Positions 21,001 to 24,000 of a DNA stretch of 64,000 bases are shown here, piece after piece. Location: the NCBI RefSeq assembly GCF_045037415.1, contig NZ_CP173438.1. One strand, given 5' to 3'. How positions within the stretch are numbered: the stretch's first letter is position 1; every line of letters starts with the position of its first letter. The stretch is from Escherichia coli (GTDB lineage: Bacteria > Pseudomonadota > Gammaproteobacteria > Enterobacterales > Enterobacteriaceae). The position numbers were made by a program.

Positions 21001-24000
21001 GCGGCAGTCTGGATAAGAAAAGCGCGCCGGCCGTCGTTCGGGTCACTCATTTGCAGAAATAAAAATAAATTAGCCTGATGGCCTGAACTACTGGGCCATT
21101 AGGGTATTGGGTTATGCTATTTGTCATCCTTTTAATTGCGATAATGCAGAGTTAATTTATAGAATTAAACACTTTTTTATCTGCTGATTTTGTTTTAAAT
21201 CACAATGTTATCTCAGAGATGCTCATAACTTCGGATTTCTATGAAAATATTGACGTAATTTTGCTTTTCTCTCGTTAGAATAGCGCGCACAAGGAACTGT
21301 GAAAAAGGAGTGGCAATGATCAAGAAGACAACGGAAATTGATGCCATCTTGTTAAATCTCAATAAGGCTATCGATGCCCACTACCAGTGGCTGGTAAGTA
21401 TGTTTCACAGCGTGGTCGCGAGAGATGCCAGTAAGCCAGAAATAACGGATAACCATTCTTATGGACTGTGCCAGTTTGGTCGGTGGATTGATCATCTGGG
21501 GCCACTCGATAACGATGAATTACCTTACGTTCGGCTAATGGATTCTGCCCATCAACATATGCATAACTGTGGTCGGGAATTAATGCTGGCTATTGTTGAA
21601 AATCACTGGCAGGACGCGCATTTCGACGCTTTTCAGGAAGGGTTGCTTTCTTTTACTGCGGCATTAACCGATTACAAAATTTATTTGCTTACGGTCCGTA
21701 GCAATATGGATGTTCTGACGGGATTGCCGGGTCGTCGGGTTCTTGATGAATCCTTCGATCATCAGTTACGCAATGCTGAACCTCTGAATCTTTATTTAAT
21801 GTTGTTGGATATAGACCGATTTAAATTGGTTAATGATACCTACGGGCATTTAATCGGCGATGTAGTATTACGCACCCTCGCAACTTACTTAGCCAGTTGG
21901 ACGCGCGATTACGAAACGGTTTATCGCTACGGGGGCGAAGAATTTATCATTATTGTCAAAGCGACTAATGATGAAGAAGCATGTCGTGCAGGTGTCAGAA
22001 TTTGCCAGTTAGTCGATAACCATGCCATCACACATTCTGAAGGGCATATCAACATTACCGTGACTGCTGGTGTGAGTCGTGCATTTCCTGAAGAGCCTCT
22101 GGATGTGGTCATTGGAAGAGCGGACAGGGCAATGTATGAGGGTAAGCAAACCGGAAGGAATCGCTGCATGTTTATTGACGAACAAAATGTGATTAACCGA
22201 GTTTAAGCTCCGTTTAACATTCATTGAGAAAACTGATGCTACTGTGTCAACGATCCGTTATCAGTGCAGGAAAATGCCTGTTAGCGTAAAAGCAAAACAC
22301 AAATCTATCCATGCAAGCATTCACCGCCGGTTTACTGGCGGTTTTTTTTCGCCGTCATAAAAATCAGGCCCCTTGTACACAACTGTAACAAGGGGCCGGT
22401 TAGGTGAGGGATTATCTCCGTTCATTAGTCATCCCATTTGTGGCTGAAATACGCGGCCAGAAACCCAGAAAATAAAATTATTCCCAGTACGGCCATAAAA
22501 ACATTCATATTACCCAGCATTATTTGCCTCCGTTTATGGTGTGGTGTGTTTCCTCGCTTACCTTAATTTTCATCTCAATGAGAAAGATATTAGCAGAGGT
22601 AACCTAAACGAAGGCTGAATTAAATTCTTATTGTGTTCGACTTAAATCAACAAAGCGCGGGCTGCCCCCACGGTCTTGCACGAATTCCTTTTAACATCAG
22701 CACCCACGCAACAACGATCACCAACGCTAAGATGATAAACAGCGAGAAAGGCGGCAGACTGGTAAGTACTATGCCACTCACTAATGGGTTAATCGCAGCA
22801 CCAAGCCAGCCTAAAGACTGGGCGGAAAAATAGCTGGCTTTCATTCCTGGCGGCGCAATATGGTCAATCAACATATACTCGCCCGGCGCATAAATGATTT
22901 CACCGACAGTAAATACCGCAGCTGACATACCCCACATTAGCAGGCTGTTGCCGGAAAAAATAAAACCGACCAGCCCGATGACGAAACAGAAGGTGCCTGC
23001 TGTCATCAGCGCGCGGATGTTAGCCGGGTTAAGGCGGCGGCCTACGGAATATTGCAACGTAACTACCATGGCAGCATTCACCGGAAGAACAACCGCGACC
23101 ACCTTTTCGGCAAAATCACCATCAGCAATCACCATCACATATTGTGAAATGCATGAAGCAAATGCGCCGCTAACAAAAGAAGCCAGAAAGCCAGAGCAGG
23201 TAAACCACAACAGTGCTTTATCTTGTAATAAAACTTTCGGCGACCAGACACTGCCTGTTTCCGTGGCGATGATTTTCTCGCTGCGCTTTACCCAAATTTG
23301 AATGAAAAGCATGGGAAACGCGGAACAGATAGCTGCCAGCCAGAAGGGCAGATTGATGCTCTGCATCACCAACAGCGTGCCGAGTGGCGGACCGATGGTC
23401 CAGCCAATGTTGAGCATGGTGTAGTTGATTGAGAAAATCTTCGTTTTGCTGGTGGACGAAAGATTGTCGGCAAACCAGGCTTTCAGCACGGTAGCAAAAA
23501 CGGAGTAGGCGCAGTTAATAAGGGCAAAAAAGAGCACCACCAGCGTCACGTTATTCACTAAAGGAATGGCAATAAAACCGCTAGCGAAGGCGGTAATTGC
23601 CAGTAACATATAGCGTTTCTTGTCGAACTTATCCGCCAGGATACCAAAACCGAGGCTAAAAACGACGCCAATAGTGAGCGCAATTGTCATCGCATAACCG
23701 ATTAGATCGACACTCAGGCTGTACTGGCGACTCAAGTAAATGGTCATAAACGGCAGCGTAGCGCCGCGTCCGATGGTTAATAACAACGACGAGGCAAGAA
23801 GGGCGCTGGTAGAGCGTCGTAGGGATAAGTTCATTTGTCTGTCCGGCAGTGCGTTTCGTTATGTTTTGTTTTAGAGATGTAAAGGAATAGCATGGCAAAA
23901 ATCCGAAGTATAGCGACTTATTTGCGCATTAATGCCGTCGTAAACGGTGACTAACGAATCAACTGTTAAAGAAAAGTAAATTCAGCTAAGTTGATTGCTT

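Follow-up and report, generated by a model that had tools for sequence, protein, structure and literature searches.

In Escherichia coli, the gene for the small RNA (sRNA) MgrR and the gene for the small protein MgtS are convergently transcribed, and both are PhoQP-dependent (bioRxiv 10.1101/2021.06.30.450655). According to the same source, the 98-nucleotide (nt) MgrR represses eptB, and MgtS stabilises MgtA. Literature on K-12 describes MgrR, acting with Hfq, as a repressor of eptB, ygdQ and pitA, and MgtS is described elsewhere as acting on PitA. Here we analyse a 64,000-nt stretch of an E. coli genome (NCBI RefSeq assembly GCF_045037415.1, contig NZ_CP173438.1; the whole stretch is hereafter called the window), in which the spacer between the genes dgcZ and ydeE, at 22207..22646, is almost certainly the known mgrR/mgtS-mgtT locus, comprising two convergent, low-Mg2+-responsive transcription units. 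MgrR, MgtS, the further small protein MgtT and a 17-codon upstream open reading frame (uORF) have all been published previously; of these, all but the uORF carry a K-12 annotation. The locus is therefore ordinary as a discovery, and its value is one of calibration: an initial annotation, made by reading the raw sequence, recognised the 31-codon gene and the sRNA correctly.

Identity and setting of the locus

The segment at 22100..22750 is 100% identical to several complete E. coli genomes, including SK1144 and ATCC 11775, and this segment is present in 5416 of the 5426 complete E. coli genomes. Pairwise alignment of the locus with K-12 gives 99% nucleotide identity. The interval 22207..22646 is exactly the spacer between the two flanking genes. 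In particular, dgcZ, on the plus strand, ends at 22206 with the stop codon TAA at 22204..22206 (its RefSeq start is at about 21316, and the list of open reading frames (ORFs) reaches a GTG at 21310), while ydeE occupies 22647..23834 on the minus strand; the two genes were identified from the ORF list, profile matches and RefSeq.

MgrR small RNA

When the entire window was searched against Rfam, one match alone reached the gathering threshold: RF01407 (STnc560), at 22218..22431 on the plus strand. It scores 281.9 bits, the gathering score being 55 (E = 1.8e-64), and covers the full length of the model, which at 214 nt also takes in about 34 promoter-proximal nt and, past the RNA, about 82 nt that include the mgtS terminator and the final mgtS codons. 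Coordinates of K-12 b4698, transferred by pairwise alignment, place mgrR, specifying a 98-nt Hfq-dependent sRNA, at 22252..22349 on the plus strand; 97 of the 98 nt are identical, and the one substitution is T4C, at 22255. In Salmonella, STnc560 is an Hfq-enriched RNA of about 90 nt that is encoded between ydeI and ydeE, on the other strand from the yneM (= mgtS) ORF, and the yneM RNA is about 190 nt long (Sittka 2008, PMC2515195). A literature search returned no paper naming MgrR together with STnc560; the identity of the two follows from the Rfam match, the K-12 annotation of the same bases and the Salmonella synteny. The initial annotation had anticipated an independent transcript of about 100 nt, probably MgrR, between dgcZ and mgtS, and had named a covariance-model search of that spacer and an alignment with K-12 as ways to check it; both lead to the 98-nt RNA.

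The predicted fold of MgrR (-25.9 kcal/mol, z = -2.9) consists of a 5′ stem-loop, an A-rich centre that holds the seed and in which nt 36-71 are mostly unpaired, and an 8-bp, G+C-rich terminator with a U8 tail. Enzymatic probing of MgrR has shown a matching two-hairpin architecture, in work that also describes Hfq binding (PMC6239178). On sequence and fold, MgrR has the Hfq class II architecture, with a poly-U-tailed Rho-independent terminator and an internal A-rich (ARN) single-stranded region. The intrinsic terminator, ACCGCCGG-TTTA-CTGGCGGT followed by T8, lies at 22323..22349 on the plus strand and was found both by the terminator scan and by folding. Specifically, its stem, at 22323..22342, has 8 pairs, 6 of them G-C, and the T8 run occupies 22342..22349. 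The strong plus-strand terminator that the initial annotation had placed about 125 bp past dgcZ is this one, and the distance was approximately right, the stem starting 117 nt and the T-run ending 143 nt after the stop codon. All stem pairs of MgrR are maintained in 15 distinct relatives, with one compensatory and several one-sided changes, including changes in the terminator stem; with a single compensatory pair among relatives too similar to one another, this covariation is slight, and we did not use it as independent structural proof.

MgrR of the window shares with K-12 mgrR and RF01407 the terminator, the A-rich and seed centre, the PhoP box at -52..-36 and the position between dgcZ and mgtS, and it differs by T4C, which is nothing of substance. 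Given this near-identity to K-12, MgrR in the window strain would be expected to be expressed in a PhoQP-dependent manner, to bind Hfq and to repress eptB and ygdQ.

The PhoP box of mgrR, AGTTTAagctcCGTTTA, is located at 22200..22216 on the plus strand, at -52..-36 from the mgrR 5′ end, and overlaps the dgcZ stop codon. It contains the direct repeat AGTTTA (22200..22205)-N5-CGTTTA (22211..22216). A PhoP motif at -52 to -36 of mgrR is given in PMC8313858, where it is attributed to Moon & Gottesman 2009. The window contains 3 copies of the exact PhoP core GTTTA-N6-GTTTA, compared with 0.11 expected, and the mgrR copy is at 22201..22216. The -10 element, read from the sequence, is TACTGT at 22240..22245 on the plus strand, 6 nt short of the mgrR 5′ end (22252). 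A sigma-70 consensus scan of 22000..22900 returned no promoter, an outcome to be expected of PhoP-activated promoters, since these lack a -35 element.

A third, degenerate hexamer, CATTGA, is present at 22222..22227 on the plus strand, in 11-bp phase with the PhoP box and 12 bp before the -10 element. The sequence TTCATTG is invariant in all 20 of the 20 aligned Escherichia, Citrobacter and Salmonella loci, and the first hexamer of the published box is not conserved in Citrobacter. As a motif match, CATTGA is not distinguishable from chance in a relaxed scan of the window allowing up to 2 mismatches, and a function for it is putative. Relative to the published PhoP box, the conserved part of the mgrR promoter is displaced downstream by one hexamer, an arrangement that merits specialist attention.

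mgtS and its terminator

The gene mgtS (formerly yneM) encodes a 31-amino-acid inner-membrane protein, MLGNMNVFMAVLGIILFSGFLAAYFSHKWDD, and occupies 22425..22520, including the stop codon, on the minus strand. It is present in the ORF list and is matched by two curated models: the NCBIfam equivalog NF033842 (80.6 bits against a cut-off of 35, E = 5.8e-23) and Pfam PF22865 (88.2 bits against a cut-off of 27). The protein is identical to that of K-12 b4599, and the gene carries one synonymous nucleotide change. The protein is near-invariant across 16 loci, and the ratio of nonsynonymous to synonymous substitution rates (dN/dS) is 0-0.15 against 7 relatives, with dS reaching 1.9; judged by these substitutions, MgtS is under strong purifying selection.

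The mgtS intrinsic terminator, GGCCCCUUGU.ACA-GUUG-UGUACAAGGGGCC followed by UGAUUUUUAU, lies at 22357..22397 on the minus strand, inside the mgtT ORF. Its hairpin, running from 22397 to 22367, has a stem of 10+3 bp and a predicted energy of about -22.6 kcal/mol. A one-base bulge caused the simple terminator scan to overlook this hairpin, and folding recovered it. The hairpin is kept in 18 related loci from Escherichia, Citrobacter and Salmonella with compensatory changes in the stem, among them U-A to C-G at the tenth pair and ACA/UGU to GCA/UGC above the bulge, and a run of about seven T follows it in most Citrobacter loci. The compensatory changes and the T-run thus identify the hairpin as a genuine intrinsic terminator.

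The MgrR and mgtS hairpin stems are 24 bp apart. In this closeness the pair resembles other convergent pairs with closely spaced or bidirectional terminators, but the two E. coli transcripts each have their own hairpin and T-run, and overlap of the MgrR and mgtS RNAs in E. coli requires read-through. The 31-codon minus-strand ORF, its own terminator and the convergent arrangement of terminators, all proposed in the initial annotation, are accordingly real. That account of the mgtS side was incomplete, however, since it overlooked mgtT, which lies downstream and makes the unit other than monocistronic, and the uORF.

mgtS promoter and upstream open reading frame

The mgtS promoter, read from the sequence at 22579..22621 on the minus strand, comprises a candidate PhoP box, AATTCAgccttCGTTTA (22621 to 22605), a 12-bp spacing and a -10 element, TAATAT (22592 to 22587). 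A 12-bp distance from box to -10 element is typical of PhoP-activated promoters. Both hexamers of the box are conserved in Escherichia and Citrobacter, and the layout recurs in two distant loci, L031 and L036, the latter having CGGTTA-N5-TGTTTA, 12 bp and TATGAT. The 5′ untranslated region (UTR) of mgtS is 58 nt long (bioRxiv 10.1101/2021.06.30.450655), which places the transcription start at about 22578-22579, 7 nt after the -10 element; PhoQ dependence of mgtS has been reported from experiment, in that work among others.

The reading of the locus given here has three weak points. First, the ends of the Rfam match, 22218 and 22431, are not transcript ends, the model being wider than the RNA. 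Second, the mgtS box AATTCAgccttCGTTTA has one good half-site only, the promoter-proximal CGTTTA. Third, the mgtS box is, as a motif, indistinguishable from chance, the window containing 71 matches with up to 2 core mismatches against 64.7 expected. With no enrichment in this relaxed scan, neither the mgtS box nor the third mgrR hexamer can be claimed on motif alone. None of the evidence contradicts the identification of the locus as mgrR/mgtS-mgtT. The initial annotation had been unable to find a clean PhoP direct repeat upstream of mgtS, and we agree with it there; the clean repeat of the locus is that of mgrR at 22200..22216, which had gone unmentioned.

The mgtS 5′ UTR contains the 17-codon uORF CDS58, MKIKVSEETHHTINGGK, read from the sequence at 22520..22573 on the minus strand. 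Its stop codon TAA shares one base with the mgtS ATG (TAATG). The uORF of the window is identical to CDS58 of a PIRT-Seq study, in which its product gave weak western-blot detection (PMC12350097). K-12 has the same CDS58-containing 5′ UTR and the same TAATG overlap. The CDS58 ATG is not conserved in Citrobacter.

Conservation across genera

Relatives of the locus were gathered by scanning genome contigs for an exact 18-mer from the MgrR centre; of its 27 matches we discarded 8, which fell in unrelated phyla by chance. The locus was located in this way in 4 Escherichia species, in 14 Citrobacter assemblies, in one metagenome-assembled genome labelled Raoultella and in S. enterica subsp. arizonae. 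MgtS was also used as a phmmer query against representatives, and contig look-ups then gave four more distant mgtS genes, whose neighbours differ; in all four a convergent MgrR-like RNA directly follows mgtS. These RNAs have the core CTATCCATGCAAGC (slightly diverged in L036) and a terminator of the ACCGCC…GGCGG-T8 type, and two of them score at or above the Rfam gathering threshold.

The convergent pairing of mgtS and MgrR is therefore kept in Escherichia, Citrobacter, Salmonella and the four distant loci, with the exception of C. amalonaticus. In that species (L018, 571..778) mgrR is present, with an Rfam score of 113.6 bits, and the sequence past the MgrR terminator is unrelated; no adjacent mgtS was found in the 550 bp examined, which extend about 400 bp beyond the MgrR core. 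In the distant locus L033 (783..830), where the mgtS homologue call (P0016) is 41 amino acids long, the MgrR-like terminator starts 4 nt after the mgtS stop codon and there is no other hairpin, an arrangement suggestive of one bidirectional terminator for both transcripts.

Separately, L031, a distant enterobacterial locus, contains an unrelated Rfam match, STnc100 (RF02076, 78 bits), at 2710..2891 on the minus strand, about 1.1 kb from mgtS.

The overlapping reading frame mgtT

The ORF mgtT, encoding the 34-amino-acid MNGDNPSPNRPLVTVVYKGPDFYDGEKKPPVNRR, lies at 22321..22425 on the minus strand and is present in the ORF list, in RefSeq and in K-12 (b4775). Its ATG begins on the final base of the mgtS stop codon (TAATG). 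The frame passes through the mgtS terminator and ends within the MgrR terminator, so that it is antisense to MgrR nt 70-98 (22321..22349, 29 nt), and full-length MgtT therefore needs read-through of the mgtS hairpin. MgtT matches Pfam PF23498 over residues 1-34 (96.3 bits against a cut-off of 27); the coding DNA is identical to that of K-12, and the protein is identical to MgtT in the PIRT-Seq supplement (PMC12350097). In the literature, mgtT was discovered via ribosome profiling and tagging, and is PhoQ-dependent and in an operon with mgtS. What makes mgtT worth attention is that an annotated, translated ORF runs through a conserved terminator into the antisense of an sRNA and yet shows no constraint at the protein level.

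We lean slightly towards the explanation that mgtT does not function as a protein gene and that its ORF is a by-product of two terminators that happen to lack in-frame stop codons, with initiation via the overlapping ATG. Among 18 loci the mgtT frame ranges from 8 to 65 codons, and only the first ~13-23 residues are alike, a conserved N-terminal stretch that is encoded in part by the terminator stem. Conservation of MgtT as a protein was not found outside E. coli, the full 34-amino-acid form occurring only in E. coli and E. albertii; elsewhere PF23498 matches over residues 1-20/27 only, or not at all, which leaves the membership of the window ORF unaffected. Within Escherichia the mgtT dN/dS is at least 1 (about 1.5-2.2), on very few substitutions, compared with the low values for mgtS, and cross-genus comparison found no protein-level constraint on MgtT beyond the start codon and N-terminus. 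The protein is reported not to be membrane-associated, and neither deletion nor overexpression has a reported phenotype. Against a by-product stand the observations of translation by ribosome profiling, tagging and PIRT-Seq, and the retention of the overlapping start in 18 of 18 close loci, that is, in all those from Escherichia, Citrobacter and Salmonella, and in 2 of the 4 distant loci. Moreover, the N-terminal pattern M-N-x-D-x-P-x-P survives in two distant loci, L031 and L036, through synonymous changes in the Asn and Pro codons; the versions of the pattern across these loci and the window (22401..22425, minus strand) are MNGDNPSP, MNSDNPPP and MNADLPPP.

Much less probable is that the conserved element is not the MgtT protein but a translationally coupled trailer ORF that begins at the mgtS stop codon, has a proline-rich N-terminus (with PPP in some genera) and modulates mgtS termination. 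Such an ORF would accommodate the conserved start, for which a third distant locus has GTG at the same position, and a frame that in every case extends as far as the base of the hairpin or beyond, with a variable length and C-terminus. Translation of proline codons is reported to respond to Mg2+ in the case of the mgtL leader peptide. Were this explanation true, ribosomes driven up to or into the hairpin would block its folding and set the level of read-through into the mgrR antisense, and translation efficiency would be linked to the balance of two convergent PhoP-dependent RNAs.

Proposed mechanism

The model that follows combines identities, coordinates, structures, conservation and the PhoP repeat, all determined here, with PhoQP dependence, Hfq binding, targets and MgtS function taken from the literature. 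At low Mg2+, phosphorylated PhoP would bind the repeat at 22200..22216, and MgrR (22252..22349) would be transcribed and would end at its own terminator. MgrR would bind Hfq via the U8 tail and the A-rich centre, and its conserved single-stranded centre would pair with the eptB, ygdQ and pitA mRNAs, leading to their repression. From the opposite side, PhoP would activate the mgtS promoter through a half-site-type box (22605..22621) that takes the place of the -35 region. The resulting mgtS mRNA, of ~190-220 nt, would carry the 17-codon uORF, mgtS and the mgtT start, successive frames being joined by TAATG overlaps. MgtS, with 31 amino acids and one hydrophobic helix, would stabilise the MgtA Mg2+ importer and act on PitA. 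Judged from the anatomy of the locus, mgtS transcripts probably end for the most part at the hairpin at 22367..22397, and the read-through fraction would encode full-length MgtT and be antisense to the MgrR 3′ end.

The terminator scan found no plus-strand terminator of dgcZ's own between its stop codon (22206) and 22323; read-through transcripts of dgcZ should therefore have a 3′ UTR that contains all of MgrR and end at the MgrR terminator. That the hairpin at 22323..22349 is only the dgcZ terminator, preceded by a dgcZ 3′ UTR and not by an sRNA gene, draws support from its being the first plus-strand terminator after the dgcZ stop codon, where dgcZ transcripts probably end, but is extremely improbable, and we reject it as the sole explanation, given that MgrR, together with its promoter elements and terminator, recurs in Salmonella, Citrobacter and distant genera in which the upstream gene is not dgcZ, that an exact PhoP repeat and a -10 element precede the annotated 5′ end, and that an independent, PhoQP-induced 98-nt RNA has been published. 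The two readings are not exclusive, and the MgrR terminator probably serves both dgcZ and MgrR transcripts.

Flanking sequences and other PhoP-type repeats

On the ydeE side, the terminator scan detected a terminator-like hairpin at 22656..22672 on the minus strand, within the last ydeE codons and just upstream of the mgtS promoter. On the other side, the interval between dcp and dgcZ (20854..21062) contains only pseudogene remnants, namely a fragment of a 2-oxo-tetronate isomerase gene and a YdeI fragment. K-12 differs here in having intact ydeI and ydeJ upstream of dgcZ, compared with ydeI remnants only in the window strain, and the mgrR/mgtS locus is unaffected by this difference.

The other two exact PhoP-core repeats of the window lie far from the locus. 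One, cTGTTTAgtcgcTGTTTA, is found at 39819..39855 on the plus strand, followed 12-13 bp on by a -10-like ATAATG/TAATGA; it is positioned about 275 bp upstream of a fimA-like gene for a fimbrial major subunit (~40112..40675, plus strand), beside hipA. The third, at 40824..40839 on the minus strand, lies between the fimA-like gene and a chaperone gene. From the positions of these repeats, the fimA-like operon could be PhoP-regulated.

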